IMG/VR virus record: IMGVR_UViG_3300036850_000087
Location: 1-41,812 of that record
Length of the DNA: 41,812 nucleotides
Direction: 5' to 3' (one strand)
Source of the DNA: a virus
In this document: one piece after another, positions 774 to 41,812 of the stretch
Layout: every line of letters starts with the position of its first letter
Position numbering within the stretch: the first letter of the stretch is position 1
Translations under genes and position numbers: made by a program
The notes under the pieces: generated by a model
The model's input: only the letters and a program-made list of their open reading frames with translations
What the model was told of the DNA's origin: nothing
Database searches by the model: none

Positions 774-775
774 CT

Positions 776-976: not shown

Positions 977-984
977 CTGACCTC

Positions 985-1449: not shown

Positions 1450-1457
1450 GGTGCCTC

Positions 1458-4316: not shown

Positions 4317-4317
4317 G

Positions 4318-10345: not shown

Positions 10346-10365
10346 CAGAGGCGTCAGGTCGTAGG

Positions 10366-10892: not shown

Positions 10893-10942
10893 ATCCCACG
10901 CTCCGTGGCAGAAACGGGTATCCGGCCGGTGAGGACTTCAAC

Positions 10943-11887: not shown

Positions 11888-12244
11888 TCAGAAGATTTGG
11901 CTATCCATCCTTGCTGAATCCGCTGCTAACACCGCCTGTCGGAGGTCACGCCAAAGAACACCCATCGCCTCGCACATCGGGCCATCAAGATCGGCACAGT
12001 TCTCACAGGTTCCGACTCCATCTGCACCTGAGGCGTCGTGGTCAAGCAATGCGCGAGCAGCATCGAGAACCCCTTCGGCAAAACATCCATGGGATACACC
12101 CTTGCTTAGGAGACTCATAACAGCCCCCGCTGCACGGCGAGCAAGATAGCTAGCTTCATCGGCCTTAAAACCCGGTTCGCCTGTCGGGTGATATTCCTGC
12201 TCTATTGCGGACTGGACACGTGTTGCCAGTGTTGCGTCACTCAT
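11888..12244 (-). CDS. Hypothetical protein (118 aa)
   Basis: The ATG at 12244 overlaps the end of the upstream gene (ATGAGTGA). Sequence: MSDATLATRVQSAIEQEY.... Confidence 0.55.
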   Translation of the reverse strand: MSDATLATRVQSAIEQEYHPTGEPGFKADEASYLARRAAGAVMSLLSKGVSHGCFAEGVLDAARALLDHDASGADGVGTCENCADLDGPMCEAMGVLWRDLRQAVLAADSARMDSQIF

Positions 12245-13834: not shown

Positions 13835-14031
13835 GCGTCCGTCCCTGCCCTGTCAGATGCCAGCTTGACCTTCATCGCAATCGCTAATAGGGCGGCTACG
13901 CCTCCACCGATGGCCTGCCAGACATGAAAAGAGCTATGAGAGATGGGATGCAGCAACACCCCGAACACCACAGACGACAGCCCTAACCCAAGCAGGAACG
14001 TTGATACTGCGTGCCAGATGTAGACACTCAT
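13831..14031 (-). CDS. Small membrane protein (2 TM helices)
   Basis: 66 aa with two hydrophobic stretches, VSTFLLGLGLSSVVFGVLL and IGGGVAALLAIAM. Confidence 0.6.
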   Translation of the reverse strand: MSVYIWHAVSTFLLGLGLSSVVFGVLLHPISHSSFHVWQAIGGGVAALLAIAMKVKLASDRAGTDA

Positions 14032-14816
14032 CGCCCCTCCTCGCTCGCCGTCGTGCTTACCACGTCGTAGGTGGCCTCGAAGATGTCAGGCTTGCATGGG
14101 TAGAACTCGCCTTTCACGCCCTTGATGATCCAGTCGCCGGGATCAGCCCGCATCTCACCTTCGAGGGTCTTGATGTAGATAACGTCCTGATGCCAGTTGG
14201 TCGGATGCGTCTCGGTCCGAAAGTCAGCCTGCCCGTCCATCCACGTCACGATGTCTAGGGTCGGGGCCACTCCGACCCGCATGGCCTCGACTTCGACCGG
14301 CTTCTTGCGCGCGATCACAGCCCACGTCATGTGCCCCTCCTCGTCTGCGGAGCGTTCGTCATGTGCCATGTGCTTCCGAACGTAGGCCAACACCCGCTCG
14401 TATCGCTGCTCATCCGTCTCGCTCTCGTAGTCGTCGTCGTTGAGCGCGATGAGATTCCAGGCGAGGGTGAACGCTAGGCCCAGGTGCTCCTCGGCCCACG
14501 ACGCCTGGTCAGCCGGATCGCCGGGTCCGTATTCGTCGCCGTTGACGTACTCCGGTAGCTCACCAACGACGCCCTTGTGACGGGCGAACGCCCCCAGGAC
14601 GCAGCACTCGACCCGCTCCCGGCCGCTGTCGTCCTGTTCGACCTTGTGAAACGTCTCGTAGGCCAGCTTCGGTTCGGGCAAAGCCAGGAGCGCGGCTTCG
14701 ATCTCACGCAGCGCCTTCTGACCGCGCTTGCTCTTGAGTGTCGTCACCGAGTTCCGCCGCCAGCGACCATCGGCCAGGGGGTCGTAGTCATCCCAATCGT
14801 CGGACACACGACTCAT
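14028..14816 (-). CDS. Hypothetical protein (262 aa)
   Basis: Long ORF in the operon. The C-terminus PGDWIIKGVKGEFYPCKPDIFEATY resembles a small domain common in actinophage early genes. Function unknown. Confidence 0.6.
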   Translation of the reverse strand: MSRVSDDWDDYDPLADGRWRRNSVTTLKSKRGQKALREIEAALLALPEPKLAYETFHKVEQDDSGRERVECCVLGAFARHKGVVGELPEYVNGDEYGPGDPADQASWAEEHLGLAFTLAWNLIALNDDDYESETDEQRYERVLAYVRKHMAHDERSADEEGHMTWAVIARKKPVEVEAMRVGVAPTLDIVTWMDGQADFRTETHPTNWHQDVIYIKTLEGEMRADPGDWIIKGVKGEFYPCKPDIFEATYDVVSTTASEEGR

Positions 14817-15682: not shown

Positions 15683-15864
15683 GACTGACCCTCCGTCACA
15701 GTTCCTTGGGACTCGTGTGCCGCAACCCTTGCCAATGCAGCCTCACGCGCCGCCTGCTCGCTTTCGTAGCCGTCTGAGATCAGCATGAGGGGGAAGCCGA
15801 TACGGAACGCCCAATCTCCCCCGAGGCGTTCTGGCATCTGGTACACATCGAAGTCAACGGTCAT
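15679..15864 (-). CDS. Hypothetical small protein
   Basis: 61-aa ORF in the operon. Confidence 0.45.
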   Translation of the reverse strand: MTVDFDVYQMPERLGGDWAFRIGFPLMLISDGYESEQAAREAALARVAAHESQGTVTEGQS

Positions 15865-16435
15865 TGGTCGCCACCAAATCGCCGTCGTGCCATTGGTAGT
15901 CCCATCCCAGACGGCTACGCCGTGAGAACAGTTCGACGTACGGAGCGGGGCTGATGCGTTCTACGAGGTCATAGAAAGCATCGGGCTTCTCACTGTGCTT
16001 GCCTCTCGGCCAGTCGAAGCACGTTCCCTCTGAGGCTTGTTGTAGTCGGCCTCCTTGCCCGTACGGGTTACCGTGCCGCGATCCCTTACGGGCGAGCAAG
16101 AAGTGTTCGGTGTTGCAGCGGAACCGTCCCGTCCCGAGCCCCGGTTTGCGCCAGGTGAATAACACCGTGGGATTGAACCCCCAGGCTCGAGCAACTTCGT
16201 AGGCCCAATCGACGTGCTGCGAGAGTGCCCAGATATAGAGATGCGCCTGGTCCTCGGCAGGGACGGCAAGTGCTTTGATTGCCGCAAGGTCCATCGTGGC
16301 GTACTGCGCCTGTGGTGCCCCTCGGCGCTGCCCGTTCTCCGAACCCACCCAGGTCTTTCCGAGTTCAGGCGTCCACGGAGGATCAGCAACGATGGTCCGA
16401 TAAGTCACGCACATCCCCCTTCGGGTGTGTGCCAA
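15854..16435 (-). CDS. MT-A70 family N6-adenine DNA methyltransferase
   Basis: IVADPPW (DPPW catalytic motif), QYATMDLAAIKAL, HLYIWA, ARAWGF, FTWRKPGLGTG, TEHFLLARKG. The start is uncertain (TTG 16435, ATG 16414 or GTG 16408). Confidence 0.8.
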   Translation of the reverse strand: MAHTRRGMCVTYRTIVADPPWTPELGKTWVGSENGQRRGAPQAQYATMDLAAIKALAVPAEDQAHLYIWALSQHVDWAYEVARAWGFNPTVLFTWRKPGLGTGRFRCNTEHFLLARKGSRHGNPYGQGGRLQQASEGTCFDWPRGKHSEKPDAFYDLVERISPAPYVELFSRRSRLGWDYQWHDGDLVATNDR

Positions 16436-17223: not shown

Positions 17224-17504
17224 AGCAATCCCTTCGATCCATGCTTCACACAGAACTCATGGGCTACCCGTCCGGTGAATCTCTTGTTGCGAAGGGAGTT
17301 GGTTCCACCTTCTGAGCGGGGAAGGGACCAGCCGACCTCTTCTCTGTAGAACCTGGAGCGGGGTGAGAGGTCTACGGGTTCAGAACAAAGAGCACAATCA
17401 CCAAGCTCCGTACCGCCTGCGACCGCAGTGGGGCCAGGGACCCCATCCATCTCTGGAGTACAGAGCCCATGCTCTTCGTGTCTGTTCTTCGACGCTTGCT
17501 GCAT
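17220..17504 (-). CDS. Hypothetical Cys/His protein; start uncertain; overlaps the 3' end of the Rpf-like gene
   Basis: The frame is open from 17645. No start codon lies downstream of the Rpf stop (17398), so at least 56 nt (ATG 17453) or 107 nt (ATG 17504) must overlap. Motif: CALC...HEFCVKH. Confidence 0.4.
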   Translation of the reverse strand: MQQASKNRHEEHGLCTPEMDGVPGPTAVAGGTELGDCALCSEPVDLSPRSRFYREEVGWSLPRSEGGTNSLRNKRFTGRVAHEFCVKHGSKGLL

Positions 17505-17931
17505 GCGGGTCACCTGCTCCACCAACTCCCCGCCAGGTGGAGATGCGGAACTGCCACCCTCCATGGAAAGAACCGTTCCGGGAATGTATGGCGAAGTCGT
17601 AGGTATCGCCGGTCTCACAGCCCACGACCTCAACGGCTTCGTCATCGGTGGCCGGCTTTCCCTGTTGGGGTCCGGGCCAGGTGTCCCTGATCCGCTGCTG
17701 CACCGGCTTCGGCGTAGGAGCCGGTGTGGGGCTCTGTGTGGGCTTGGGAGGGGGTTTGGGCTTCGGGGTAACCTCCGGAGTCTTTGAGGGCGTGGGGGAG
17801 GGTTCCTGGGGGCCTGAGGGGATTCGAGGAAGGGTGGCGGCTTCGGCAGGCCTTGAGGGTTGGGATATCAATGACCCGAGGGTCCCAGCTATCAGGAGCC
17901 ATAGGGTTATCAGGACGGGGGTTGGGTTCAT
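17398..17931 (-). CDS. Secreted Rpf-like (resuscitation-promoting-factor type) transglycosylase domain protein
   Basis: Signal-peptide-like N-terminus MNPTPVLITLWLLIAGTLGSLIS, then a Pro-rich linker (PKPKPPPKPTQSPTPAPTPKP). The C-terminus VVGCETGDTY....NGSFHGGWQFRISTWRGVGGAG.PH.AS.EEQ...A..L....GWGPWPHCG matches the transglycosylase-like Rpf domain. Confidence 0.75.
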   Translation of the reverse strand: MNPTPVLITLWLLIAGTLGSLISQPSRPAEAATLPRIPSGPQEPSPTPSKTPEVTPKPKPPPKPTQSPTPAPTPKPVQQRIRDTWPGPQQGKPATDDEAVEVVGCETGDTYDFAIHSRNGSFHGGWQFRISTWRGVGGAGDPHAASVEEQTRRAWALYSRDGWGPWPHCGRRRYGAW

Positions 17932-22045: not shown

Positions 22046-22169
22046 CTACCCCGACGCTCTAGCTGAGGTCCATACCTCCTGCCCCTGCTGTTCATGGCCT
22101 ATCGAATCCGGTGAGATCGTCTACCTCGTCAACGGCACCTGGTGTTGTGACGACTGCGCTACGGAATGA
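22032..22169 (+). CDS. Small Cys-rich protein (45 aa)
   Basis: GTG at 22032 with GAGGG 6 nt upstream. Motif: CPCC...CCDDC. The track start at 21987 overlaps the previous gene. Confidence 0.4.
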   Translation: MILPDYPDALAEVHTSCPCCSWPIESGEIVYLVNGTWCCDDCATE

Positions 22170-22801
22170 CAAAGAAGAAGCAGAAGCTGTCCCGCAAGGT
22201 CGCTGTCATCGGTTGTGCATGGGATTGGTGGTCCAACGCTGTTGAAACCATGGAGGACTTCGAGTTCTGGACTCTGAACAACTGTGGGGTGGGAATCTCA
22301 CGGGACCCCGACCGGCTCTATGAATTGCACTCCAAGGACCAACTGGCCTCACCAGACCGCGACCGTGATCCGAGGCACGGAGAATGGGCCGAACAGTTCA
22401 AGACGGCAGAGCAGGTTTGGTCACTTCACCCTCGCAAAGAGTTAGGCCCTCGGGTCAAGGCCTTCCCACTCGAAGAACTGATCCGCTGGTGTCCCCGCCC
22501 CTACTTCACCAACTCCGTAGCTTGGATGGTGGCTCATGCTCTGTACGAAGGCGTGAGCGAACTCTTCATCGCTGGGATGAACATGGACTCACCATCAGAG
22601 TGGATGGACCAGAAGGCCTGTCTTGAATACTGGATTGGTTACGCAGAAGGTCAGAGGGTCAAGGTCACCGTCTCCCCCGACTCCCAGATCGGCAAGTCCT
22701 CCTACCTGTACGGGCTTCAGGACCCTGCCCTACAGCGCGCTGTCACCACCAAACGCCTGCTGGCCTATGCGGCGATGGTGTTCAAGAGAGAATCCGAGTA
22801 G
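22166..22801 (+). CDS. Paralog of 37207..38121: candidate sialyltransferase/Maf(DUF115)-like glycosyltransferase
   Basis: 211 aa. RKVAVIGCAWD, FEFWTLNN, RLYELHS, YFTNSVAWMVAHALYEGVSELFIAGMNMDSPSEW, LEYWIGYAEGQRVKVTV and YLYGL align motif-for-motif with the gene downstream of the capsid gene. Confidence 0.5.
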   Translation: MTKKKQKLSRKVAVIGCAWDWWSNAVETMEDFEFWTLNNCGVGISRDPDRLYELHSKDQLASPDRDRDPRHGEWAEQFKTAEQVWSLHPRKELGPRVKAFPLEELIRWCPRPYFTNSVAWMVAHALYEGVSELFIAGMNMDSPSEWMDQKACLEYWIGYAEGQRVKVTVSPDSQIGKSSYLYGLQDPALQRAVTTKRLLAYAAMVFKRESE

Positions 22802-23347
22802 GTGCCTCACTACGACCCCCCCTCCGGTCGGTACACCTCCAAGATCCCCTCAGGCACCCAATCCTTCCGCCAACTCGTAGCCAACAAGTTCGGCTACACC
22901 CGTACCGAGGTCATCAGAGACAGGAGCAGGTGTAATCAAACCCGCTCCGAGCACTGTGAGTGCCGGGGGATCGACCTCTTCACGACGGATGTCAACAAGG
23001 GTTGGAACACCTTCTACTGGTGCATCGAGAACGCCGACCGTTACGGCATACAGAGCGTCATCTTCCGAGACGGTCAGTGGGGATTCGGACGTTGGTCCGT
23101 CTATCCCCGCACGAAGCGGGACCACTACGACCACGTCCACGTGGGGCTGAATCTCAAGGGAGCGGGAACCGTTGTAGACGAGGAGGATGAGTTGACCCCA
23201 GAAGAGAAGCAAAAGCTTGATGAGGCGTGGACGGCGTCGCACGTACGTGTCACAGACAGGCAGTCTGGCCAGCGGGTCACTCTCGCGCTGGACGAGTTCG
23301 TGATCGACCAGCTGAAGCCCGAGCCCCAGCGACGTTACGTACTGTGA
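22802..23347 (+). CDS. LAS-type (M15-like) zinc peptidase-like protein, putative
   Basis: 181 aa with a GTG start directly after the TAG. SEHCECRGID has the SxHxxxxxxD spacing of SxHxxGxAxD, and HYDHVHVGL supplies a candidate third His ligand. Acidic coiled C-terminal tail. Confidence 0.4.
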   Translation: MPHYDPPSGRYTSKIPSGTQSFRQLVANKFGYTRTEVIRDRSRCNQTRSEHCECRGIDLFTTDVNKGWNTFYWCIENADRYGIQSVIFRDGQWGFGRWSVYPRTKRDHYDHVHVGLNLKGAGTVVDEEDELTPEEKQKLDEAWTASHVRVTDRQSGQRVTLALDEFVIDQLKPEPQRRYVL

Positions 23348-23590: not shown

Positions 23591-24286
23591 TCACCTGACG
23601 AAGAGTACGTTGCAGATGGGACCCTCGTGATGGCGGCTGACCTTGTCTGCTGTGAACCCAGCATCTTGTAGCAAGGCATATACCCGCTGTCTCACATCTG
23701 GTTTGGTGTCGTCGGTTTCCACCTGTAGGGCTTTGACCGTCCTCAGGGTCTTCTCGGCCCCCTGTAGAACCTTGTCCTCGTAGCCGTCGGTGTCGATCTT
23801 CAGGTACTCAGGTATAGGAAGTGCCGCATCGGCCTTCTCTAGACCCTCTCGCTGATGGAAGACCCACCAGTCCAGGGGATGGACCAGAACCCTTTCCCGG
23901 TCAGTACCCTCACCGCCTATGGAGTGAAGGGCCGAGCCGGCTGCTCGTGACGAATACACGAACTCGATGACCTCGGTCGTATCCCACAGCGGATCGGGGA
24001 CCAGAAAAGCTTCGAGCGAGTTCAGGGCTAGGTTCTCCCTCAGCCTGATGAAGTTGGGAGCGGAGGGCTCGAAGGCCACCACCTGAAGACCTAGAGCGCA
24101 GGCGATGAGGGTATAGCTGCCCACATTCGCCCCCACGTCGTAGAACGCAGAGCCTTTCGGGATGGACTCGATGAACTCCACAGTCTCTGGCTCTTTCTTT
24201 ACTGCTCCAGCACGAAGGGTCTGCTCGACTTCAGTCTCGGCGTGGAGAAGGAGTTCGATGGGCTCGTAGTCCAGGCGGGTGATCAA
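23591..24286 (-). CDS. FkbM-family SAM-dependent methyltransferase
   Basis: 231 aa. FYDVGANVGSYTLIACALGLQVVAFEPSAPNFIRLRENLALN is the FkbM (Methyltransf_21) signature. The TTG start overlaps the upstream TGA (TTGA). Confidence 0.75.
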   Translation of the reverse strand: MITRLDYEPIELLLHAETEVEQTLRAGAVKKEPETVEFIESIPKGSAFYDVGANVGSYTLIACALGLQVVAFEPSAPNFIRLRENLALNSLEAFLVPDPLWDTTEVIEFVYSSRAAGSALHSIGGEGTDRERVLVHPLDWWVFHQREGLEKADAALPIPEYLKIDTDGYEDKVLQGAEKTLRTVKALQVETDDTKPDVRQRVYALLQDAGFTADKVSRHHEGPICNVLFVR

Positions 24287-30301: not shown

Positions 30302-30757
30302 CTAAGACACCCAGACCAGCATATTGATGCCGTTGGCGGCACCGACCTTGGAGGTCGTTCCCGTGGTGGCGTTGGAGGCCAAAAGCCTGAACACGTGCTT
30401 GCCGACGCCGTATGAGGGCACCCAGGTCTTGCCCGCTCCCTGCCGAAGCGTCCTTCCGGGGTCAGCGTCCACCACCATGGCCCCGGGCTGGAGGACCGTG
30501 CTGCCGTCGGGTAGGACCGTTTCCAGCTGTATGAGCATCTGAGCGCCGTTCTCCACCGTCATCGTGGCATCACAGGACACCAAGACCGAGGCGCCCCCGG
30601 GGATGGACACCGTGGATTCCATAGCTGTGACCGTGGCGTTGTGGACCTCGAAGGAAGTCCCTCTGGATTCGTAGGTCACGATGGGAAGCTGCTCGAACTC
30701 CTGGAAGTTGCGGGTCTGTTGCTCCCGGGAGGAGACATAGGGGACCTGACGGGGCAT
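30302..30757 (-). CDS. NFQE-family virion protein, paralog 3
   Basis: 151 aa. MPRQVPYVSSREQQTRNFQEFEQL ... MLVWVS. Confidence 0.65.
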   Translation of the reverse strand: MPRQVPYVSSREQQTRNFQEFEQLPIVTYESRGTSFEVHNATVTAMESTVSIPGGASVLVSCDATMTVENGAQMLIQLETVLPDGSTVLQPGAMVVDADPGRTLRQGAGKTWVPSYGVGKHVFRLLASNATTGTTSKVGAANGINMLVWVS

Positions 30758-31225
30758 CTAGATCGTCCAGACCGTGATGGTGGCCAGACCTCCCGTGGTC
30801 AGATGCGCCGACCCTGCCCCTCCGGGATCGCGGGAGAGCAGTACGTCGTAGGTGTTGCGCCCTGGTTGCCCGTCGGGCATCCAGGTCCCAGACATTGGCC
30901 CCTCACGGGCCACCCCGGCCGCCGCCGTTCCCCCAGCCGCTGTGTTGAAGTCCTCGAGCTGGGTCGTACCGTCGGGGAATCGGGTGTGCAGGAACATCCT
31001 GGCCGTGGTGTCTCCTAAAAGACGGATGCGAGCATTAGCTTTCACGACGACCTGAGTTCCCGGATACACAGATGCCTCGACCCCCACCACAGAGGTAGCG
31101 ACCGTCGTGATGGCATACGAAGAGGCGGCCGTAGACGAGAACCTTCTGGGGACAAGCTCGAGCTCCTGGAAGTTGCGCTGGGTGTTAGCAGCCAATCCGA
31201 ACAAGGGAACCCGGCGAGGGCTCAC
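30758..31225 (-). CDS. NFQE-family virion protein, paralog 2
   Basis: Preferred start is the GTG at 31225 (GTGA overlap with the upstream stop), giving (M)SPRRVPLFGLAANTQRNFQELELV ... ITVWTI. The track start at 31234 is also GTG. Confidence 0.65.
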   Translation of the reverse strand: MSPRRVPLFGLAANTQRNFQELELVPRRFSSTAASSYAITTVATSVVGVEASVYPGTQVVVKANARIRLLGDTTARMFLHTRFPDGTTQLEDFNTAAGGTAAAGVAREGPMSGTWMPDGQPGRNTYDVLLSRDPGGAGSAHLTTGGLATITVWTI

Positions 31226-31725
31226 AGCATCCACACCGTCAGGGCCGCGCGGTTTCCACCGATGGACCCAGAGGCTGTGGCCGGAGTCCCTAAAGGCCTA
31301 TTGGTCTGCTGGCCTTCTAATGCCACGATGTAATGGCCTGGGGTCATGAACGCCGGGGCCGTAGTGCAGTAGGTCTGAGACAAGGTGGCCCGAAGCGACC
31401 ATTCGGTTGACCCCGGCTCGAAGAGCATGTCCGGGGGGAGGGTGATGGTCGATCCACTTGGGTTGGTGAGATGCATAAAGGCAGTTACCTGGATGCCGTT
31501 GAACGCGGTGAACCCCACATCGGCCGAGATGACCATGTCGGAGTTACCGGGCTTCACGACATCAAGGGACATGATGTTGGAACGAGCCGAGGTGAAGACG
31601 TAGGACGTGGCCCTGATGCTGTAGTCGGCGAAGCGGGCAAGTTCCATCTCCTGGAAGTTGCGGGTGAGGACCGCTTGGGTGCGGGGGTCTACCTCGGTCG
31701 GTGATAGAGGGACGCGCTCAGGCAT
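31222..31725 (-). CDS. NFQE-family virion protein, paralog 1
   Basis: ATG at 31725. MPERVPLSPTEVDPRTQAVLTRNFQEMELA ... LTVWML. Confidence 0.65.
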   Translation of the reverse strand: MPERVPLSPTEVDPRTQAVLTRNFQEMELARFADYSIRATSYVFTSARSNIMSLDVVKPGNSDMVISADVGFTAFNGIQVTAFMHLTNPSGSTITLPPDMLFEPGSTEWSLRATLSQTYCTTAPAFMTPGHYIVALEGQQTNRPLGTPATASGSIGGNRAALTVWML

Positions 31726-31726
31726 C

Positions 31727-32398
31727 TCACCACCAATCCCCGAGGGTGGGGGACGTGAAGGCCATCGACACATACGAAGCTTGGTCTGATGGGAGTCTCG
31801 TATGGCGGATCATGTCCTCCAACCGCTGCTCGTAGAGAAGCTGGGCGTCCCTCCAGCGGGTGTCCTTTGACTCTTTGCGTCTGGCTAGGACCTCGACGTA
31901 CAGAGGGATGAGGTCTTCCCACCCAGAAGGGATGTCGGCGGGGTCCTCAGGTGAGGAGAGCTTTCTGGGCAGGCGGTAGTAGTAGACGAGGAGCCCATCC
32001 TTGACCGTCGATGACGTTGAAGGGTAGACGTATATCTTCCCGTTGCCTGGATAGCCCCAGAACGTCCAGGTGTGAGGGTTGGAGCCCGCCACCTGACGGG
32101 AGTGGTACCAGATGTCATCGATGTTGTGGAAGGGGACGTAGTTCAGCAGGTAGGACGTAGAGGAGTCCTGGACGTATTCGACCTTGTGGATTCTCAGCAT
32201 GTCCGTAGGGGCTTCGTATTCGGCCTGGTTGGAGATGAGGGTGATGGCTTTAGTGGCCGGGAGGCATTCGGTCCTACGGGCTACGTCTCTTAGCCCCTCA
32301 TACACCCAGCGGTCCAGTTCGTCCTCGGTCCAGAACTCGGCGATCGTCTCGTCCAGGTGGCTTCTCACGTCGTCACGGAGGTCCTTAAGGGTCGTCAT
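31727..32398 (-). CDS. Head-tail adaptor / connector-like protein, putative
   Basis: 223 aa. The N-terminus LKDLRDDVRSHLDE....FWTEDELDRWVYEGLRDVARRT...Q.EY..P.D.LRI..V resembles phage adaptor proteins; position also supports this. Confidence 0.4.
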   Translation of the reverse strand: MTTLKDLRDDVRSHLDETIAEFWTEDELDRWVYEGLRDVARRTECLPATKAITLISNQAEYEAPTDMLRIHKVEYVQDSSTSYLLNYVPFHNIDDIWYHSRQVAGSNPHTWTFWGYPGNGKIYVYPSTSSTVKDGLLVYYYRLPRKLSSPEDPADIPSGWEDLIPLYVEVLARRKESKDTRWRDAQLLYEQRLEDMIRHTRLPSDQASYVSMAFTSPTLGDWW

Positions 32399-32474: not shown

Positions 32475-32924
32475 TCACGCCTTCTCGTAGACCTCTCCGT
32501 CCTCTGATCTCCAGGTGTCGGGCAGCCCCCCTGTTTCGGGAAGTCCGAAGAAGCTCTCGGCGTGGACCCGGTCCTCATGGTGATCCGTCGAGACCTCGAA
32601 GAACACGCAGTTCGTAAGAGCCGTCACCCGATGGATGGCACCGGGGGGGATGTGGAAGCTCATACCTCTGGTCATGAGGATCTGATGAAGGGTCCCGTCC
32701 TCGGCGTATTCGACCTCAGCTTCACCTGAGGACAGGTAGAAGGTCTCGTCCTTCTCGACGTGGAACTGGAGTCCCCCCCTGGTCCCCTTCTTCATGAGCA
32801 GGAGCTTTCCGAGGTACCCGGGTCCCTCTCCTAGGATGACCTCCTTGCCCCACTCCCTCTCAAGCTCTATCGGGATGAACTCCTCGATGGTCTGAGAAGT
32901 ATCGACCCTGCGAGAAATCACCAA
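32475..32924 (-). CDS. Cupin domain protein of the mannose-6-phosphate isomerase type-II (PMI C-terminal) kind
   Basis: 149 aa. REWGKEVILGEGPGYLGKLLLMKKGTRGGLQFHVEKDETFYLSSGEAEV...IPPGAIHRV fits rpWG....l.....y.vK.l.v.pg..lSlQ.H..r.E.w.v..G.a. The TTG start overlaps the NeuB-like gene by 65 nt. Confidence 0.6.
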   Translation of the reverse strand: MVISRRVDTSQTIEEFIPIELEREWGKEVILGEGPGYLGKLLLMKKGTRGGLQFHVEKDETFYLSSGEAEVEYAEDGTLHQILMTRGMSFHIPPGAIHRVTALTNCVFFEVSTDHHEDRVHAESFFGLPETGGLPDTWRSEDGEVYEKA

Positions 32925-33909
32925 AGGAGATCAGCTCCTCTTCTTCAACGTCACGGACCAATGTCTTGCCGATGATTTCATGAACCGCAGACGGGTTCAG
33001 GCCGCCGCCGGGTGAGAGGAAGGCGATGTCTTCGGGCGTCATGACGTGGCCTGCTCTTAGACGTGTGCGGAAATAGCAGGCTTGCGACATCTTGAGGAGT
33101 GCGGTGTCCTCCTCGTCCAGGCGATGCTTCCTCCCATCCCCGACGGCGACCTCAGCGCGCCTGAGGTCCCTCACGAGTTTCTTCATGCCTTGAGGCTCCA
33201 GGGAGAAGGCGTGGTCGGTTCCCTTCCAGGTTCTATTCAGGGTGAAGTGCTTTTCGATGACCGTAGCCCCCAACAGATACGCAGCAAGGCTCATGGCAAT
33301 CCCCACGTCGTGTAAGGAGGCCCCTATCTCAATCTCCGGGAAATGCTCTCTAAGGGTCCTGATGACCCCCAGGTTCAACGTCTCATACGGAGCGGGGTAG
33401 ATGGCCGTGCATTGCATCAAAACGCTCAGGCAGCTTCCTGCGGCCTCTACGGCCCGTTCTACGTCCTCGAGGCTCCCACCCCCCGTAGAGACAACCAGGT
33501 TGGCTCCTGAATCAGCCGCATAGGAGATGAGGGGAAGGTTGGTCAATGACCCCGAGGCGATCTTGATGGAGCACACATTCAGCTCCCTCAGGAAATCAAC
33601 CGAGGGGATGTCGAAGGCCGTAACGAGGAACACCATCCCCAGTTCTTGGGTGAGGTCCTTGCAGGCCTGGTATTCGGTCTTGCCGAACTCCAAGGCCTCT
33701 CTGTGCTCCCCGTAGGTGGCTCCATATGCGTTCTCGGAGTTGTAGTAGGAGTCGTAGAAGCGCTTGGTGTAGAGGCTCTTGTTGTCCCGCTTCTGGAGCT
33801 TCACGGCATCCACACCGCATTCGGCAACCTTACGGATCATCTCTAGAGCCGTATCCAATGACCCCTGGTGGTTGTGGCCCAACTCAGCGATTACCGTGCA
33901 GCGCTTCAT
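32860..33909 (-). CDS. NeuB-family nonulosonic acid synthase (N-acetylneuraminate / pseudaminate / legionaminate / KDN-type) with a C-terminal SAF domain
   Basis: 349 aa. VIAELGHNHQGSLDTALEMIRKVAECGVDAVKLQKR (IAE.G.NH.G....A..mi..a...G.davK.Q), KIASG, VVSTGG and IEKHFTL. The SAF-like C-terminus is LRAGHVMTPEDIAFLSPGGGL.P....IIGKTLVRDV. Confidence 0.8.
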   Translation of the reverse strand: MKRCTVIAELGHNHQGSLDTALEMIRKVAECGVDAVKLQKRDNKSLYTKRFYDSYYNSENAYGATYGEHREALEFGKTEYQACKDLTQELGMVFLVTAFDIPSVDFLRELNVCSIKIASGSLTNLPLISYAADSGANLVVSTGGGSLEDVERAVEAAGSCLSVLMQCTAIYPAPYETLNLGVIRTLREHFPEIEIGASLHDVGIAMSLAAYLLGATVIEKHFTLNRTWKGTDHAFSLEPQGMKKLVRDLRRAEVAVGDGRKHRLDEEDTALLKMSQACYFRTRLRAGHVMTPEDIAFLSPGGGLNPSAVHEIIGKTLVRDVEEEELISFGDFSQGRYFSDHRGVHPDRA

Positions 33910-34160
33910 TTGCGCTTGCCTGTCCGCAGGTAGCTACGGATGGCCGAGTCGTAGTCCCTGGATGCCTTCTTACGGGAACGGCGCTTGTAGGCCTTCTCGG
34001 ACATGTAGCGGCCCGCTAGGTAGATGCGCTTAGAGGGGGTTGAAGGTTTTCGTCGGGCGGGGCGCTTCATGATGCGCTGGGCGGGACCGAACTCCTGGTT
34101 GTGAACGCTCTCCCAGACCCGGTAGTCCCTGGCTTCCCGATGAGTGGGTTTAGAGCTCAC
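33906..34160 (-). CDS. Small highly basic protein
   Basis: 84 aa, Arg/Lys-rich (RRKPSTPSKRIYLAGRYMSEKAYKRRSRKKASRDY). ATGA coupling to the NeuB-like gene. Confidence 0.55.
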   Translation of the reverse strand: MSSKPTHREARDYRVWESVHNQEFGPAQRIMKRPARRKPSTPSKRIYLAGRYMSEKAYKRRSRKKASRDYDSAIRSYLRTGKRK

Positions 34161-34518
34161 GCCAGTTCACATAGGAGGTCGTGAGCTCGGTGGAGTACAC
34201 CACCAACCCGACAAAGGGCAGGAGGCTGAGCACGATGGGCAGCAGGTTCGGTCCTTGAGAAGAGAAGCGAAGACCCAGGTCTACGGTGTCCTGGGAGATG
34301 TGGAAGCTCATGGTGTTGGTGGTGTCTGGCATGACGAGGATGTAGCGAGGAGGGGCGTTGGCGGAGAACGACGTGAAGTTGGTCGATGTGGTGATCCGAG
34401 CCTGCTTGCCGTAGAACGTGGCAGAAGAGTGGGTAACCGACATGACGTTGACATAGCTTGTCCCGGCCGTATCGGTCAGCGTGGTCCGGATGCTGATGTT
34501 GGCTGTGCCCATCGCCAC
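34150..34518 (-). CDS. Small Ser/Thr-rich virion protein, paralog of 34522..34881
   Basis: 122 aa. YILVMPDTTNTMSFHISQDTVDLGLRFSS parallels FVLLIPPSTNTFPYRLTGSTAEVGLPLSS. Confidence 0.6.
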   Translation of the reverse strand: MAMGTANISIRTTLTDTAGTSYVNVMSVTHSSATFYGKQARITTSTNFTSFSANAPPRYILVMPDTTNTMSFHISQDTVDLGLRFSSQGPNLLPIVLSLLPFVGLVVYSTELTTSYVNWREL

Positions 34519-34521
34519 CCA

Positions 34522-34881
34522 TCAATACGTGATGACCCGAAGCTGGAAGGTCGTTCCGGCCGTGGTGTAGACGTTGAAGGACGTACCGCCCGGAAGGGAC
34601 AGGAATGCGGGATCGACAGAGGACAAAGGAAGGCCGACCTCAGCCGTTGAACCCGTCAGCCGATACGGGAAGGTGTTTGTCGATGGCGGGATGAGCAGAA
34701 CGAACTTGGCCGAGGACAGCATGGAGAACGTCGTCGCCGTCCCCTGGGCCGTGGTGACCTGAACGTAGGTGATGGTGTTGGCCGCCGAGGAGTTCGAGGC
34801 CGCTATGGATAGCGAGTCGGTTCCACCCTCGGGAAGCCCGGTGACGGTGGACAGGATGGAGATCGAAGCTGTCGATGCCAT
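34522..34881 (-). CDS. Small Ser/Thr-rich virion protein, paralog of 34150..34518
   Basis: 119 aa. MASTASISILSTVTG.... See the paralog motifs. Confidence 0.6.
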   Translation of the reverse strand: MASTASISILSTVTGLPEGGTDSLSIAASNSSAANTITYVQVTTAQGTATTFSMLSSAKFVLLIPPSTNTFPYRLTGSTAEVGLPLSSVDPAFLSLPGGTSFNVYTTAGTTFQLRVITY

Positions 34882-35109
34882 CTAGCGGGCTCCGGACTTA
34901 CGACTCGCGTATCGAAGACCCTTGCGCTTGGCGGATCGGCGGAAGTGACGGTACAGACGCTTCACGCCTGAAACCTCACCGGGCGTGGTGTCCCGCTTTG
35001 TCTTAGCCAGATAACGCTGATAGCCCTTGGGGTTGCGGGCCAGCCTCCGGCCTAGAGCAGCTTGCCGACGACGGCCTGCCTTGGTTGGGTGCTTGTCGTA
35101 GCTGGGCAT
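34882..35109 (-). CDS. Small highly basic protein carrying the recurrent NPK..Y..Y basic motif
   Basis: 75 aa. GRRLARNPKGYQRYLAKTKRDTTP resembles the AFKNP(K/R)N..AY..Y modules of the two large internal proteins. Confidence 0.55.
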   Translation of the reverse strand: MPSYDKHPTKAGRRRQAALGRRLARNPKGYQRYLAKTKRDTTPGEVSGVKRLYRHFRRSAKRKGLRYASRKSGAR

Positions 35110-36013: not shown

Positions 36014-36302
36014 GAACCGCTCTCCTTAGTCCTCGTTTGGTCTGACGCAGTTGCCGTTTCACCTGGTTGGCCTTGTAGCGTGCCGTGTCCTGAACCGGTC
36101 CCTTGCCGACGCCTGTGCGGTATTCGTTGCGGGCCGTCATCCACGCCTCGCGGGCTGTCTTGATACCGGCTCTGGCTGCCTGACGTTCGGCGCGGGTCTT
36201 CCCTGCACGGATCTTCTCCCAGCCCTCAGAGCGTGCCTTGAGCCAGGCGTCACGAGCGGCCTGGCGCTTGGTCTTGGACTCAGGAGTAGGAGCCGTCATC
36301 AA
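36006..36302 (-). CDS. Basic helical repeat protein (98 aa)
   Basis: Internal repeat RQAARDAWLKARSEGW / RQAARAGIKTAREAWMTARNEY. Confidence 0.55.
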   Translation of the reverse strand: MMTAPTPESKTKRQAARDAWLKARSEGWEKIRAGKTRAERQAARAGIKTAREAWMTARNEYRTGVGKGPVQDTARYKANQVKRQLRQTKRGLRRAVRG

Positions 36303-36865
36303 AGGGTCGAACCCGTGATGAGCTGGGCCTTGACCTGGACAGCCCCCCTCACGATGGTCGTGGTCAGATAGCCCGTAGTCCCAGTAGTCCCCGAGGTGTG
36401 GGCGAAGCCAGCCACCCCGAAGTAGGAGCCCGCCACCTGAGTTGAGGCCAGCGGCCCGAGGTATCCCCCACCGGCTGATCCCACCGTGGAGTTCGTGGTC
36501 CCCAGGACATCACCGTTGACCGTCCCAGAAGTCAGGAACGCACCAGCAACCGGTCCTGCAACACAAGCCAGGAACCACGCCCCCGAGGAAGCGTTGGAGG
36601 CGAGGTCTGTGGACTGACCTGTAGAAGCTGAGGTCAGAGCCACCCCTACGAAGAGCGGCGAGGCGTTGACCGTGGTGACGATGGCTCCTGTCCCATCCGT
36701 GGAGTTGGTCGATAGGACCACGGCCGCACCCTTGGGGATGGCGTTGGCCGAGGACATGTTGTGGAACGCCTGGATCGTCTGATGCCCGCGGACGTTCTCT
36801 TGGATCTCGTAGCCGAATGCTCCCTTGCGGTTAGAGAGGATTCCTGGTGCGCCTGTCCATGCCAT
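36299..36865 (-). CDS. Gly/Ser/Thr-rich head-associated protein (decoration-protein candidate)
   Basis: 188 aa, three genes downstream of the capsid gene. The beta-rich G/S/T composition gives a DUF2190-like impression only. Confidence 0.35.
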   Translation of the reverse strand: MAWTGAPGILSNRKGAFGYEIQENVRGHQTIQAFHNMSSANAIPKGAAVVLSTNSTDGTGAIVTTVNASPLFVGVALTSASTGQSTDLASNASSGAWFLACVAGPVAGAFLTSGTVNGDVLGTTNSTVGSAGGGYLGPLASTQVAGSYFGVAGFAHTSGTTGTTGYLTTTIVRGAVQVKAQLITGSTL

Positions 36866-37206: not shown

Positions 37207-38121
37207 CTACGGCCCTCCTAGAGTTTTGGTTAGACGAAGGACAGCTTCGGCTGAAGTGGGCACGGCGTCGTCGGGTGAGCCTTGGCCGTCTGTCTTGGCT
37301 AACAGCGAACCTTCCATCGGCTCGCCCCGGTCCTGTGAGTTGCGGATTGGAGACTCTTCGGGCTCCTGGCCGTAGCCGACATCCGTGGGCATCGTCCAGT
37401 TGAGCTTGATGGACTCCATGGTTTCGATGGCCCCCGTGCACTTGGCGATCTCGCCCTGCACCTGTTGCAGATTGGCCATGAGCTGGTTCTGCTGGCCCAT
37501 GAACTCGATCTTCTTGGCGCGGGTCTGCTCGATCTGGACCTGGAGCTTGATGCGCAGAGGCGATGTGCTTGTCAGTCCGTAGATGGACACGGCCTTGCAC
37601 AGCGTCGAGGAGTCCGGGACGTAGACCTTGAACCCCATCGACTCGGCGATGCCGATGTAGTACTCCACGGCCGGCCTTTGGGAGGCGTACTCACTCGACG
37701 CCTGCATGTCGATGCCGAACAGCGCGATCTCACAATCCGGGTTGGCCACCCATTGGGACCGGCCGTTGATATCGACCTGGCAGGAGTTCTCGTAGATGGC
37801 CAGAGCCAGCATCCAGGCGATGGAGGAGGTGTAGTACATCCCGAAGCGGGCGAAGATCTCTTCTCTGGGCATGGCTACCGACGCCGGGAACTGAGGATTC
37901 ACATCCCACATGTAGATGGGGATCTTGGTCTGCTGCATGAACGGGATGTGATTGGGGTTTCGCCTTTTAGCTAGCCCCTCCAGGTGGTGAATCTCGAAGA
38001 TCCTGGTGACCCTCGGGACGTAGGCGTAGAGGTCGTTGACCCCCCAGATCTCCCAGGACTCATCGGCATACGGAGCCTGATTCCTGGAATCCGAGAAGCC
38101 GACGATGGCGATCTTTCTCAT
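37207..38121 (-). CDS. Candidate sialyltransferase/Maf(DUF115)-like glycosyltransferase, translationally coupled to the capsid gene; paralog of 22166..22801
   Basis: 304 aa. The ATG overlaps the capsid stop (TGATG). Motifs: RKIAIVGFSDS, WEIWGVND, YYTSSIAWMLALAIYE, EIALFGIDMQASSEY, VEYYIGIAESMGFKVYV. The C-terminus is a coiled coil. The motif order resembles GT42 (CstII: VIIAGNGPS...VFRCNQ...ITSGVYMCAVAIALGYKEIYLSGID) from memory. Confidence 0.45.
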   Translation of the reverse strand: MRKIAIVGFSDSRNQAPYADESWEIWGVNDLYAYVPRVTRIFEIHHLEGLAKRRNPNHIPFMQQTKIPIYMWDVNPQFPASVAMPREEIFARFGMYYTSSIAWMLALAIYENSCQVDINGRSQWVANPDCEIALFGIDMQASSEYASQRPAVEYYIGIAESMGFKVYVPDSSTLCKAVSIYGLTSTSPLRIKLQVQIEQTRAKKIEFMGQQNQLMANLQQVQGEIAKCTGAIETMESIKLNWTMPTDVGYGQEPEESPIRNSQDRGEPMEGSLLAKTDGQGSPDDAVPTSAEAVLRLTKTLGGP

Positions 38122-39113
38122 CAGGCGGCCAAAGCGGTCATGAGGCCTTGCAGCCGAATGTTGGTGAAAACTAAGTTCATCATCGTGAGGAGCTGTCCCA
38201 CGAAGGCGTCCTGGTTGGCGGGCTTGACGAAGTCCACGAAGACCATGTCCCGTCCCGGGTGGCAGACGAGCTCCATGAAGTCCTCGTTGAAGAAGTACAT
38301 GTGGTCGCCTGCCGTCCCAGCCCTGGTGGTGTTCACGTGGTCGTCAACGACCATCGGGACGTTGTTGTAGAGCAGGTTCGTGAATCCGGCCTGGGCTAGC
38401 TGCTCGTCGCGTCCCGTGGGCTCTGAGGGGAAGCGTTGCTGGACCTGGAGAAGGGACTGGAAGCGGTTGTAGTTGTTCTGGGTCGTAACGATGAGAGTCG
38501 GGTGTCTGGCTCCCGAGGTGACCGACCCGAAGACCGCCTGCATGGCGTTGAGCGTCAGGGTCGCTGTCGTGGTGTCAAGACCCCCAGCTCTTGGCTGCCA
38601 GAAGGCGTTGGTCGTGGTCCTCGCACCAAGACCCCCGTAGGTAGCGGCTACCGTTCCGTTGTCGATGGCTCCCTGGACCCCATCTATCTCCTTGGCGTCT
38701 GTGACGGCGTCCGAGAAGATGCCGGTTCCCAGGCGGTCCTCCATCTCCATACGTGCGGCCTGCCATTCCAGGTTGAGGATGTTGGCCGCAGACTCCGGGG
38801 AGTCGTTCTTCAGGAGCGTGGTTCCGTCGATGGTGACCGAGACGTACTTCTGCTTCCAGTCATAGGCCGCGTTCTTGACCTTGTCGGTGGGTGTGGTGTC
38901 CAGAAGGTCGAAGCCCGTGAAGTTTCCTGCGGCCGTGTTGCGGGCGTACAGCAGGGGGACCTCGATCTGCGTACCCCCCCTTACCGTCTTCTTGTTGGAG
39001 CGGTAGAGGCGGTAGAAGATGGGATTGCTGCCGTAGATCTGGTCGAACACGCTCGGGTAAATCCAACGACGGGTGATCGAGTTCAACTCATTAACGCCAA
39101 TGGGTGTTGCCAC
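38121..39113 (-). CDS. Major capsid protein (HK97-fold, podovirus-type), putative
   Basis: 330 aa with a GTG start preceded by GGAGG. It lies downstream of the scaffold-like gene, and its size and sequence character are typical of T7-like/P22-like capsid proteins. Confidence 0.7.
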   Translation of the reverse strand: MATPIGVNELNSITRRWIYPSVFDQIYGSNPIFYRLYRSNKKTVRGGTQIEVPLLYARNTAAGNFTGFDLLDTTPTDKVKNAAYDWKQKYVSVTIDGTTLLKNDSPESAANILNLEWQAARMEMEDRLGTGIFSDAVTDAKEIDGVQGAIDNGTVAATYGGLGARTTTNAFWQPRAGGLDTTTATLTLNAMQAVFGSVTSGARHPTLIVTTQNNYNRFQSLLQVQQRFPSEPTGRDEQLAQAGFTNLLYNNVPMVVDDHVNTTRAGTAGDHMYFFNEDFMELVCHPGRDMVFVDFVKPANQDAFVGQLLTMMNLVFTNIRLQGLMTALAA

Positions 39114-39614
39114 CTACTGCTCACCTCCGTCAATCAGCGAGAGTCGGAATCTCTCGAGGTAGGAAACGAGGGACTTTGCCGTCTGTACGTCGTCGTCAAG
39201 CAACCCGACAGCGAAGTTGCACTTTCCGCAGAGCAAAGCTCTGACTCTTCCTGTTGCGTGGTCGTGGTCTACGTACAAGACTCCCCAGCGACTCTTGTCG
39301 CCTTCGGATTCACAGATCGCGCACTTGCCGTTCTGCGCTTCGAGAAGTTCCGCGTAGTCCTCGATCGAGATCCCGTACTTCGCCTTCAGTTGGGCGCGGC
39401 GGTGGTAGACCTTCGCCTTGTCCTTGTTCTTCTTCCACCATTCGCGTGAGTACTGCTTGACCTCGGGTCGGTCCTGGCGTGATCGCTGGTAAGCCGCGAA
39501 GCAAGGCTTGCAGTAAGAGGCGGTTCCATCAGGAGTAGAGCGGTTCTTCACGAACTCGCTCTTGGGCTTCGTCTCCTGGCAGCGCGGGCAAAGTTTCACT
39601 GGCGTGCCGCCCAT
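39114..39614 (-). CDS. Endonuclease VII-family (HNH-like) homing-type nuclease
   Basis: 166 aa. NGKCAICESEGDKSRWGVLYVDHDHATGRVRALLCGKCNFAVGLL matches the Endonuclease_7 signature (C.iC......l.vDHdH.tG.vRglLC..CN.alG). The N-terminus has CPRC...CKPC. Confidence 0.8.
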   Translation of the reverse strand: MGGTPVKLCPRCQETKPKSEFVKNRSTPDGTASYCKPCFAAYQRSRQDRPEVKQYSREWWKKNKDKAKVYHRRAQLKAKYGISIEDYAELLEAQNGKCAICESEGDKSRWGVLYVDHDHATGRVRALLCGKCNFAVGLLDDDVQTAKSLVSYLERFRLSLIDGGEQ

Positions 39615-41263: not shown

Positions 41264-41812
41264 CCCTGAAGCTTGCGAGCGCGAAGGGCATTCTCGATGG
41301 GATCGGAGGTTTCTAACCCCCGCTGGCGAAGGATGCGGGTTCTGGGAGAACCGGGACCGTACTCGTTGGTGATGTAATCACGTGTTGCCCTCAACTCTGA
41401 AGCGGCGTCGCCTGTTACCTGACCATATCTGCGTCGGGCTTCTGGACCGAGCTGCCCGAGGCCTTGGTACTTGCCTGATTTAGAACGTACACCCACTCGC
41501 CAGGATGACTCCTTACCGATGATTTGGTCTATCCGAGGGTCAACACCACCGAGGTAGAGCTTGCCCTTATTTGGCAAGGGGCGATACTTCGACTTGGCTC
41601 GCTCCGCACTCGGCAATGGGCGATAGGCAGGTTTCTTACGAGCCTTGACCTGTTTGGGTTTGCTGCCCCCACCCCGAACCGCTGTGACCTTCGGTGTCTC
41701 ACCTCGGGAGCGAGCCTGTCGGCGTTCGCTAGCAGAGCGGTACTTCCCGTAGAAGCTCTGGCGTTTGGACTGACGGGCGGCTCTGCGCTTGCGTGCTGCG
41801 GCGATACCGGGG
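41254..41812 (-). CDS. SLT-like lytic transglycosylase with a basic N-terminal module. It is truncated by the window end; the true start is at position 135 after circularisation.
   Basis: The frame is open from 41811 to the TAA at 41254 (186 codons). IIGKESSWRVGVRSKSGKYQGLGQLGPEA fits the SLT catalytic region (ES...n..a.S.aGa.GlmQl). The full protein is 188 aa. Confidence 0.55.
   Translation of the reverse strand, partial: PGIAAARKRRAARQSKRQSFYGKYRSASERRQARSRGETPKVTAVRGGGSKPKQVKARKKPAYRPLPSAERAKSKYRPLPNKGKLYLGGVDPRIDQIIGKESSWRVGVRSKSGKYQGLGQLGPEARRRYGQVTGDAASELRATRDYITNEYGPGSPRTRILRQRGLETSDPIENALRARKLQGWY
41686..41812. repeat. Terminal direct repeat, an exact copy of 1..127
   Basis: Identical 127-bp sequence at both window ends. 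Confidence 0.95.

Follow-up and report, generated by a model that had tools for sequence, protein, structure and literature searches.

Sialic-acid-like sugars govern recognition, charge, and immune and lectin interactions on cell surfaces. Here we analysed a stretch of 41,812 nucleotides of viral DNA (IMG/VR record IMGVR_UViG_3300036850_000087, positions 1 to 41,812; the window), in which a gene for a NeuB-family nonulosonate synthase overlaps a cupin gene among the genes for virion proteins. A route through the 9-phosphate of 2-keto-3-deoxynononic acid (KDN) has been characterised in Bacteroides and Prymnesium (PMC6200933). Among phages, the glycosyltransferases of mycobacteriophages (Che8 and relatives) have been proposed to decorate major capsid proteins (MCPs) with a glycan shield (Freeman et al. 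2023, as reported in PMC11256854); in the account of these phages given there, the transferase genes are located close to the 3' genome end and sugar-synthesis genes are not mentioned. A 2013 table of virome genes already contained neuB, neuA and manA (PMC3877843).

The window phage resembles the mycobacteriophages in that putative glycosyltransferase genes of its type lie beside capsid or tail-tube genes. It differs in that its predicted transferase has another fold, in that it also appears to encode the synthesis and CMP activation of an acidic nine-carbon sugar, and in the placement of its genes in the morphogenesis operon. An earlier note on the window, made from the letters without database searches, had proposed that its genes would together make, activate and transfer a nine-carbon keto sugar. 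The gene set (synthase, cytidylyltransferase, methyltransferase and two transferase-like paralogs) does look like such a pathway for a nonulosonic acid. The genes form a real and coherent phage-encoded nonulosonate system, all functional steps of which are predicted by computation. On balance we lean towards the reading that the phage encodes its own CMP-activated nonulosonic-acid pathway, with the core expressed together with the virion genes and with virion proteins as the likeliest acceptors.

In the literature searched we found no phage described as making a sialic-acid-like sugar for its own particle, and no description of nonulosonate synthesis with a transferase in a phage morphogenesis operon, of a NeuB-cupin cassette or of the transferase family reported below. 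The earlier note had supposed that no such phage system was established. In the literature searched that holds for the system as a whole, but virion glycosylation (PMC11256854) and virome neuB, neuA and manA (PMC3877843) were already known.

The NeuB-family synthase and its cupin partner

The gene order on the minus strand is MCP, a 304-aa protein, several small proteins, NeuB, cupin, head-tail adaptor and onward (Table 1). The fact that NeuB and cupin are flanked by the MCP and SU10-type adaptor genes places both inside the late structural operon, where the earlier note had located a full-length NeuB enzyme with a SAF domain. The synthase matched Pfam NeuB (PF03102) along the complete profile (positions 1-241 of 241) with 236 bits (E 5.6e-70), and its SAF domain scored 25 bits against a cut-off of 21. 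The expected signature IAE.G.NH.G...VK.Q is present as IAELGHNHQG...AVKLQK. The start codon of the synthase (ATG at 33909) is fused with the stop of the preceding gene in the sequence ATGA. In the public JGI annotation the protein is 326 aa long and begins at M24; this start is almost certainly wrong, because it removes the catalytic N-terminal IAELGHNH segment (33841-33909). The third-position GC of the NeuB and cupin genes resembles that of their neighbours, and a scan for promoters and terminators around the pair gave no moron-like signals, although the sigma-70 consensus may not suit this host. Among 50,697 GenBank phage records only 3 contain NeuB, for which PHROG has no family.

As judged from sequence, human NANS (NP_061819.2, confirmed by exact look-up) is the closest characterised relative of the synthase among those compared. 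The two proteins were 36% identical and scored 226 bits in BLASTP, against only 127-153 bits for Campylobacter jejuni PseI, Bacillus subtilis SpsE and Leptospira NeuB. Their alignment had only two small gaps, both outside an insert (Y..YG.TYG.H..LE) that is common to the synthase clade and NANS and absent from PseI and Leptospira NeuB. In a neighbour-joining tree of the NeuB domain, constructed without BT1714, the Prymnesium parvum enzyme, LegI and the NeuB proteins of Escherichia coli and Neisseria meningitidis (Nm), NANS was the sister of the clade of the window synthase, which was thus placed with NANS rather than with PseI, SpsE or Leptospira NeuB. Nm SiaC gave the lowest score among the functionally named bacterial synthases in a PDB search. 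The NCBIfam equivalog cut-offs were not reached for NeuB (TIGR03569, 266 vs 400 bits) or PseI (TIGR03586, 223 vs 340 bits).

The numbering of Nm residues follows PMC8208679 and structure entry 1XUZ. The metal ligands H215 and H236, the PEP or substrate residues K53, Q55, K129, S132, S154, Y186, S213 and D247, and the putative catalytic residues E25 and E234 were conserved in the window synthase and in 119 of 119 homologs. The equivalent of R314 is lost, being Ser throughout the clade; loss of R314 and the change E134D are features of eukaryotic NanS (PMC8208679). The synthase therefore resembles NANS, a Neu5Ac-9-P/KDN-9-P synthase, in its TIM barrel with SAF domain, its identity, the common insert and the lost R314 equivalent. 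The dN/dS of NeuB was 0.11 between two related phages (L002 and L003), which indicates that the phage gene is under purifying selection.

The cupin gene begins within NeuB. The sole in-frame starts upstream of its conserved R.WG.E motif are TTG at 32924 and GTG at 32921, so that the overlap with the 3' end of NeuB is real and amounts to 62-65 nt (65 nt had been claimed). Residues W25, G26, E28, Q53, H55, K58, E60, E110, D118 and R119 are invariant in the cupin family and H98 is nearly so; Q53, H55, E60 and H98 form the Gln/His/Glu/His pattern of motifs in phosphomannose isomerase (PMI)-like proteins. The motifs are R.WG.E, GGLQ.H..K.E and H.PPGA.H. Pfam Cupin_2 was matched with 32.7 bits, and an AlphaFold2 (AF2) model gave a cupin barrel with a pLDDT of 95.6. 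A PDB sequence search with the cupin alone found no match, and its profile found generic cupins, with oxalate decarboxylase first, a score inflated because that protein has two domains; the match to PMI 7zvm had E 0.06. The likeness to type II PMI (PF01050, COG0662) and to the archaeal PMIs (PDB 7zvy, 7zvm) consists of a passing PF01050 score, the motifs and the fold of the Thermococcus PMIs, which the model matched with a target-normalised TM-score of 0.8. The PHROG label "cysteine dioxygenase" was considered for the cupin and set aside as uninformative, given the indecisive fold and profile rankings.

Where the nearest cupin homologs (50-62% identity) could be assigned to a long contig, this was a phage contig. 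In the IMG/VR cupin loci, NeuB was immediately upstream in 31 of 32 and a CTP_transf_3 gene immediately downstream in 31 of 32. No cupin was found within 8 kb of NeuB at any of the 55 cellular loci of the NeuB clade. On this sequence evidence the cupin is a phage-specific, obligatory partner of NeuB, and it is probably a metal-dependent isomerase of a sugar or sugar phosphate.

Putative transferases and CMP activation

The 304-aa protein encoded directly after the MCP gene and the short protein encoded at 22166-22801 align as true paralogs, with 30% identity over 191 aa (E 2e-21), and the short one scored 219 bits against the profile of the family. Neither had a Pfam, NCBIfam or PHROG match. 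An AF2 model of the 304-aa protein, made with 27 homologs, had a mean pLDDT of 85 and included a 55-residue C-terminal helix and a disordered tail. When this model was compared with the PDB by Foldseek, the top 11 matches were all C. jejuni CstII or CstI (E 8e-5 to 8e-3, probability 0.99-1.0), while the next match had a probability of 0.16. The family profile gave a weak match in the PDB (E 0.76) to a CMP-Neu5Ac lipooligosaccharide sialyltransferase (9c08) at the motif YMCAVAIAMGY..IYLTGIDF, and this local alignment suggests that only the second Tyr of the phosphate-binding CstII pair Tyr156/Tyr162 is common to the 304-aa protein. The likeness to CstII and CstI (CAZy GT42; related Maf/MptE-like DUF115 fold) thus lies in the predicted fold, in the local motif (Y)M.A.AI..G...I.L.G.D and in the company of nonulosonate synthase and CMP-transferase genes. 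The 304-aa protein differs in its long C-terminal helix and disordered tail and in its gene position in a phage structural module, and its acceptor would probably be a protein rather than lipooligosaccharide. The earlier label of sialyltransferase/Maf-like paralogs stands as far as paralogy and the CstII-like fold modelled for the 304-aa copy are concerned, that is, at fold level and not by a sequence-family match.

At least 283 IMG/VR stretches encode a GT42-like relative. Among the best 80 of these loci, a NeuB and/or CTP_transf_3 homolog was present within the fetched DNA in 25; for the loci of at least 15 kb the count was 13 of 22, compared with the 3 of 50,697 GenBank phage records that contain NeuB. 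NeuB or CMP-transferase genes are strongly over-represented in the neighbourhood of the GT42-like family. Its members also recur beside virion genes, directly adjoining capsid or tail-tube genes in four phage architectures. A distant member in a siphovirus-like contig (L123) lies between tail-completion and tail-tube genes. In a 118 kb contig of 48% GC with an HK97-type capsid and tail genes (L124), the GT42-like gene (10001-10918) is among the head-tail genes, and a Pse/Leg-like cluster (4,6-dehydratase-like enzyme, divergent NeuB, GNAT and GFO/IDH oxidoreductase; 484-4435) lies just upstream of the prohead protease and MCP genes. Because the NeuB of L124 is very different, the association of the GT42-like gene with nonulosonate genes spans NeuB subtypes. 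The only GenBank phage with a GT42-like homolog was Microcystis phage Mvi-Yong1342-1 (L205, PP496355.1 34781-35584; 33% identity over 210 aa). That homolog is annotated as a 'type 11 methyltransferase' and adjoins the small terminase gene; about 8 kb separate it from a gene annotated 'sugar O-methyltransferase'.

The NeuA-like cytidylyltransferase and the FkbM methyltransferase that had been recognised earlier were both recovered by Pfam (Table 1), and every Pfam family at issue, NeuB, SAF, PF01050/Cupin_2 and PF02348, was matched. The best NCBIfam match of the cytidylyltransferase was PseF, with 75 bits and below cut-off; the KdsB equivalog cut-off was not reached either. It was 34-37% identical over about 255 aa to the CTP_transf_3 enzymes of cellular NeuB-SDR-CTP clusters (SDR, short-chain dehydrogenase/reductase; L001, L004 and L005), and weaker matches were found in many other cellular NeuB loci. 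Despite the distance of about 20 kb between the two genes in the phage, this homology links its function to that of NeuB. The FkbM protein may be a glycan O-methyltransferase.

Related phages, cellular clusters and the window genome

The order MCP, GT42-like gene, small proteins, NeuB, cupin and adaptor was also found in L002, L003, L006/L007, L008 and the IMG/VR contig L125, which are independent contigs from other samples or sequencing runs. The syntenic NeuB copies of L002, L003, L006 and L008 were 51-58% identical to the window synthase; its nearest homologs, in the same range of identity, were these and other phage copies together with a large set of cellular proteins. Scans of IMG/VR with a single NeuB or a single MCP sequence found no relatives, whereas alignment-based scans did. 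In phage L003 a 167-aa protein of the haloacid dehalogenase (HAD) family is encoded directly after NeuB and cupin (KdsC model 114 bits, KDN-9-P phosphatase model 73 bits).

A second phage lineage (L089 5923-12257, L090 2072-7004 and IMG/VR contigs L091-L122; mostly 42-49 kb, 60-66% GC) carries its cassette between portal and MCP. The cassette starts with a small nucleotidyltransferase (PF01467), a methyltransferase (sometimes a DegT aminotransferase) and a protein of about 315 aa, and continues with a NeuB without SAF, cupin, CTP_transf_3 and a GT9-like glycosyltransferase; the order NeuB-cupin-CTP_transf_3 is fixed. The PF01467 and GT9 pair hints at a second sugar of heptose- or glycerol-phosphate type. 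The adjacency of NeuB and cupin is phage-specific and is kept in two phage lineages. The GC content of all related phage contigs was 55-66%.

Cellular members of the NeuB clade were sought with one genome per species and a membership threshold of at least 45% identity. They occurred in Desulfobacterota, Chloroflexota, Gemmatimonadota, Acidobacteriota and Actinomycetota, the last including Gaiella, Solirubrobacterales, Micromonospora rosaria and Nonomuraea; outside the clade, identity fell sharply to at most 39%. In the cellular clusters (L009-L063, e.g. L010 8001-15000, L013 and L040) NeuB is followed by a KdsC-like HAD, an SDR and an aldehyde dehydrogenase, often by a transketolase/DXP-synthase-like enzyme, and then by CTP_transf_3. 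This cluster is apparently uncharacterised and widespread. A KdsC/KDN-9-P-phosphatase-like HAD adjoins NeuB in about 20 of the 55 loci. Together with the affinity to NANS, the presence of this enzyme beside NeuB in relatives argues that enzymes of the synthase clade convert a sugar phosphate into a phosphorylated ulosonate. The system is like the KDN-9-P route of Bacteroides thetaiotaomicron (BT1714/BT1713) and P. parvum in the HAD beside the synthase in relatives and in the CMP-transferase of the window genome, and differs in the small cupin partner, which is not reported there.

The window has an exact 127-bp direct terminal repeat (1-127 and 41686-41812) and covers the whole contig, which indicates that the genome of this podovirus-like phage is complete, at about 41,685 bp (41.7 kb), and was assembled as a circle. 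The terminal repeat, the full set of phage genes and the occurrence of syntenic relatives in other samples led us to reject a chimeric or contaminated contig. When 6 kb of the window were compared by Megablast with the 50,697 GenBank phage records, no relative was found at the nucleotide level. The MCP was 24-31% identical to capsid proteins of Mx8, Brucella Tb-like and Bradyrhizobium podophages, and the structural genes bear no more than a distant resemblance to those of proteobacterial and myxobacterial podophages. The phage matches of the Rpf-domain protein were only to Rhodococcus, Streptomyces and Mycobacterium phages and one further phage record. This domain hints at an actinobacterial (Actinomycetota) host; the actinomycete host inferred in the earlier note rests on it. 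The 55-66% GC of the related contigs, the presence of NeuB-clade members in Actinomycetota and a teichulosonic-acid gene cluster in Streptomyces (PMC13011467) would fit such a host, again as hints.

Table 1. Position of the features of the window that are discussed in the text.
Feature	Position	Strand	Length (aa)	Evidence or context
Portal, P22/SU10-type	5471-7246			Recognisable phage gene
Large terminase	8657-10345			Recognisable phage gene
CMP-nonulosonate synthetase-like cytidylyltransferase	12237-13028	-	263	CTP_transf_3 (PF02348), 60 bits vs cut-off 22.6
Protein with Rpf-type transglycosylase-like domain	17398-17931		177	PF06737
Short GT42-like paralog without C-terminal helix	22166-22801	+		Adjoins M15-like peptidase gene, outside structural operon
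FkbM-family methyltransferase	23591-24286	-		End of late operon; Methyltransf_21 52 bits, TIGR01444 68 bits
SU10-type head-tail adaptor	31727-32398	-		Neighbour downstream of cupin; PF24175, 85 bits
PMI-type (COG0662/PF01050) small cupin	32475-32924	-	149	Pfam
NeuB-family (NANS-like) nonulosonate(-phosphate) synthase with C-terminal SAF	32860-33909	-	349	Pfam
Two paralogous Ser/Thr-rich small proteins, candidate acceptors	34150-34881	-	122, 119	Upstream of NeuB; paralogy E 9e-6
Ser/Thr/Gly/Ala-rich protein, candidate acceptor or decoration protein	36299-36865	-	188	Between GT42-like gene and NeuB
GT42 (CstII)-like putative nonulosonate transferase	37207-38121	-	304	Directly after MCP gene; AF2 and Foldseek
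Major capsid protein (MCP), candidate acceptor	38121-39113	-		phrog_9953, E 1.6e-57
Endonuclease VII	39114-39614			Between scaffold-like acidic 260-aa gene and MCP gene

Immediately after the adaptor on the minus strand come three small tandem paralogs (183, 158 and 151 aa; 25-31% identity; 30302-31773), followed by large proteins of 524, 416 and 1066 aa and then by FkbM. The endonuclease VII region near MCP is interrupted by HNH genes in relatives L003 and L006. There are two candidates for a VanY/M15-like peptidase. The one at 132-773 gave sub-threshold Pfam matches to Peptidase_M15 and VanY; the other (22802-23347, plus strand), whose gene is the next one after that of the short GT42-like protein, shows S.H...D and DH.H motifs by eye. 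The early/middle region encodes an MT-A70 family methyltransferase (15854-16435) and a protein with a MazG-like nucleotide pyrophosphohydrolase-type C-terminus according to PHROG (14028-14816).

Proposed pathway and alternative explanations

In the pathway that we propose, the PMI-type cupin would supply an aldose phosphate, most simply mannose 6-phosphate from fructose 6-phosphate. The NANS-like synthase, identified by family, would condense it with phosphoenolpyruvate (PEP) to a nonulosonate 9-phosphate, for which KDN-9-P is the simplest candidate because the window encodes no amino- or acetyl-transfer enzymes. A KdsC-type phosphatase would remove the phosphate; a host enzyme is presumed here, because the window encodes none, unlike L003 and many cellular clusters. 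The CTP_transf_3 enzyme, linked by family and cluster homology, would make the CMP-sugar, and the GT42/CstII-like protein and its short paralog, on the strength of predicted fold and gene association, would transfer the sugar to the acceptor. The FkbM methyltransferase may O-methylate the glycan. It is plausible that the sugar is KDN. The sugar-phosphate route of the earlier note fits the NANS affinity, the KdsC-type HADs and the PMI-type cupin, while the part of its claim that named KDN is not established and lacks a phosphatase in the window.

The acceptor would be MCP or the nearby Ser/Thr-rich small proteins. Embedding of the genes in the late operon and the repeated adjacency to capsid or tail-tube genes make virion proteins the likeliest acceptors. 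The Ser/Thr-rich proteins were present as the earlier note had described them, with Ser+Thr contents of 33% (119 aa, 34522-34881), 28% (122 aa, 34150-34518) and 24% (188 aa, with 29% Ala+Gly). No family match was found for the first two and no Pfam or PHROG match for the third; the 119-aa protein has syntenic homologs in L002 and L003. Very basic, Lys/Arg-rich proteins of 84 and 75 aa (33906-34160 and 34882-35109) flank the Ser/Thr-rich pair, giving the pattern basic, S/T-rich, S/T-rich, basic upstream of NeuB, and may be internal or DNA-binding virion proteins.

Several observations weigh against a virion-directed pathway of this kind. The cupin passed PF01050 only marginally (26.5 bits against 23.6, profile positions 11-89 of 116), and with its model Foldseek returned 788 cupins in the PDB, among which CapF, KdgF, D-lyxose/mannose isomerase, dioxygenases and the Thermococcus PMIs ranked about equally. 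Its profile matches to solved PMIs were insignificant, so that of the earlier PMI-like assignment the Pfam match stands but the fold search does not separate PMI from KdgF, CapF or lyxose isomerase. The TM-scores of the 304-aa model against CstII/CstI were only 0.35-0.45, in part because the protein adds the 55-residue helix and the disordered tail. Pfam CST-I (PF06002) was matched by 1 of the 27 family members, not significantly (E 0.22), and not by the window protein. The homolog in Microcystis phage Mvi-Yong1342-1 has no NeuB nearby. The cytidylyltransferase gene lies outside the late operon, far from NeuB, and a tblastn search of the window for a HAD/KdsC phosphatase found none, a further difference from the NANS route. 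Gene position is what points to the putative acceptor, and KDN is a candidate sugar named from the genes.

The synthase itself carries a change at a position of interest. The equivalent of Nm E134, which is among three putative catalytic residues (PMC8208679), is Ser121 in the window synthase, against Asp in human NANS and in 119 of 119 nearest homologs. It is also Ser in L006, Gly in L089 and L090 of the second lineage and Asp in other phage copies, and such variation appears to be limited to phage enzymes. The codon of window residue 121 is at about 33547-33549. Loss of catalytic or metal residues, which the earlier note had held would count against the synthase, therefore touches one of the three putative catalytic acids, while the metal and PEP residues, E25 and E234 are kept. 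As E134 is near where the phosphate of ManNAc-6-P would sit (PMC8208679), Ser or Gly is compatible with altered handling of the distal group of the substrate, but it remains a caveat for synthase activity. The residue is one reason to ask whether there is such a pathway at all, the NeuB-like protein being inactive or making another product, or the cupin and the 304-aa protein being unrelated to it, for example structural or scaffolding proteins. The missed equivalog cut-offs, the uncharacterised SDR/aldehyde dehydrogenase/transketolase-like cluster of the cellular relatives, and the helix and tail of the 304-aa protein, which are reminiscent of assembly proteins, speak in the same direction. 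We nevertheless regard this as improbable: no other catalytic, metal or PEP residue varies, purifying selection acts on NeuB, the varied position may reflect substrate handling, and the fixed NeuB-cupin-CTP_transf_3 cassette in dozens of phages and the co-occurrence of GT42-like genes with NeuB are hard to explain otherwise.

A different question is where the sugar goes. The pathway could be real and serve the host envelope, capping or remodelling a surface glycan such as a cell-wall glycopolymer or receptor late in infection against adsorption to debris or superinfection, much as prophages tailor capsules. Modification of host nonulosonates by phage genes is documented: prophage-encoded epaA/epaB of Acinetobacter baumannii convert Pse to 8-epiPse (PMC12053666). 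A gene cluster for a Kdn-containing teichulosonic-acid cell-wall glycopolymer is known in Streptomyces (PMC13011467), the nearest cellular NeuB clusters lie among envelope genes (LptFG, ABC exporter, sulfotransferases and glycosyltransferases), and the short GT42-like paralog is encoded outside the structural operon, on the opposite strand and beside an M15-like peptidase gene. Set against this are the predicted co-transcription of the core genes with late structural genes, the position of GT42-like genes beside capsid or tail-tube genes in four architectures, and a cassette with neither membrane anchor nor export component. Long-term conversion of the host is unlikely, as no integrase or lysogeny module was recognised among the scanned open reading frames. 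We hold an envelope acceptor to be unlikely, though it is the strongest of the alternatives. Much less probable still, to the point of being very doubtful, is that the nonulosonate hypermodifies bases of the phage DNA. Clusters that attach Kdo or heptose to 5-hydroxymethylcytosine by cytidylyltransferases and glycosyltransferases have been reconstituted (bioRxiv 10.1101/2023.12.21.572611), with which the window shares a CMP-activated or similar acidic sugar and a phage glycosyltransferase, and the window cytidylyltransferase lies in the early/middle region near the MT-A70 methyltransferase gene. Those clusters include base-modifying enzymes, and the glycosyltransferases described there as resembling T4 beta-GT, including those of subclass III (GT94, GT53), have the GT-B fold and are not GT42-like (same source); the window has neither. 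No enzyme that would generate 5hmC or 5hmU (TET/5mYOX, cytosine methyltransferase or dCMP hydroxymethylase) was found among the scanned open reading frames, and NeuB, cupin and GT42-like gene lie in the virion module, not the replication module, in every related phage, which makes this explanation unlikely.

We therefore return to virion proteins as acceptors. A wider proposal follows the same lines, namely that uncultured tailed phages of at least two SU10-adaptor-type lineages, and other carriers of the transferase, coat their capsid or tail covalently with a self-made KDN-like sugar through the cupin-NeuB pair and a virion-dedicated GT42/Maf-like branch. We offer it tentatively, with rather more doubt than confidence. 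The gene evidence suggests that such phages may sugar-coat their own particles, and virions would then gain an acidic, sialic-acid-like coat. If this is true, virion glycosylation, known from mycobacteriophages, would extend to self-made acidic nine-carbon sugars. The GT42-like proteins would form a new and widespread transferase family with a clear donor hypothesis, and the recurrent cupin-NeuB gene pair would have a role. The finding would also draw attention to the NANS-like nonulosonate cluster, as yet uncharacterised, of many phyla of soil bacteria. In practice it could help to engineer the glycans of phage particles, supply new CMP-sugar enzymes and improve the annotation of metabolic genes in viromes.

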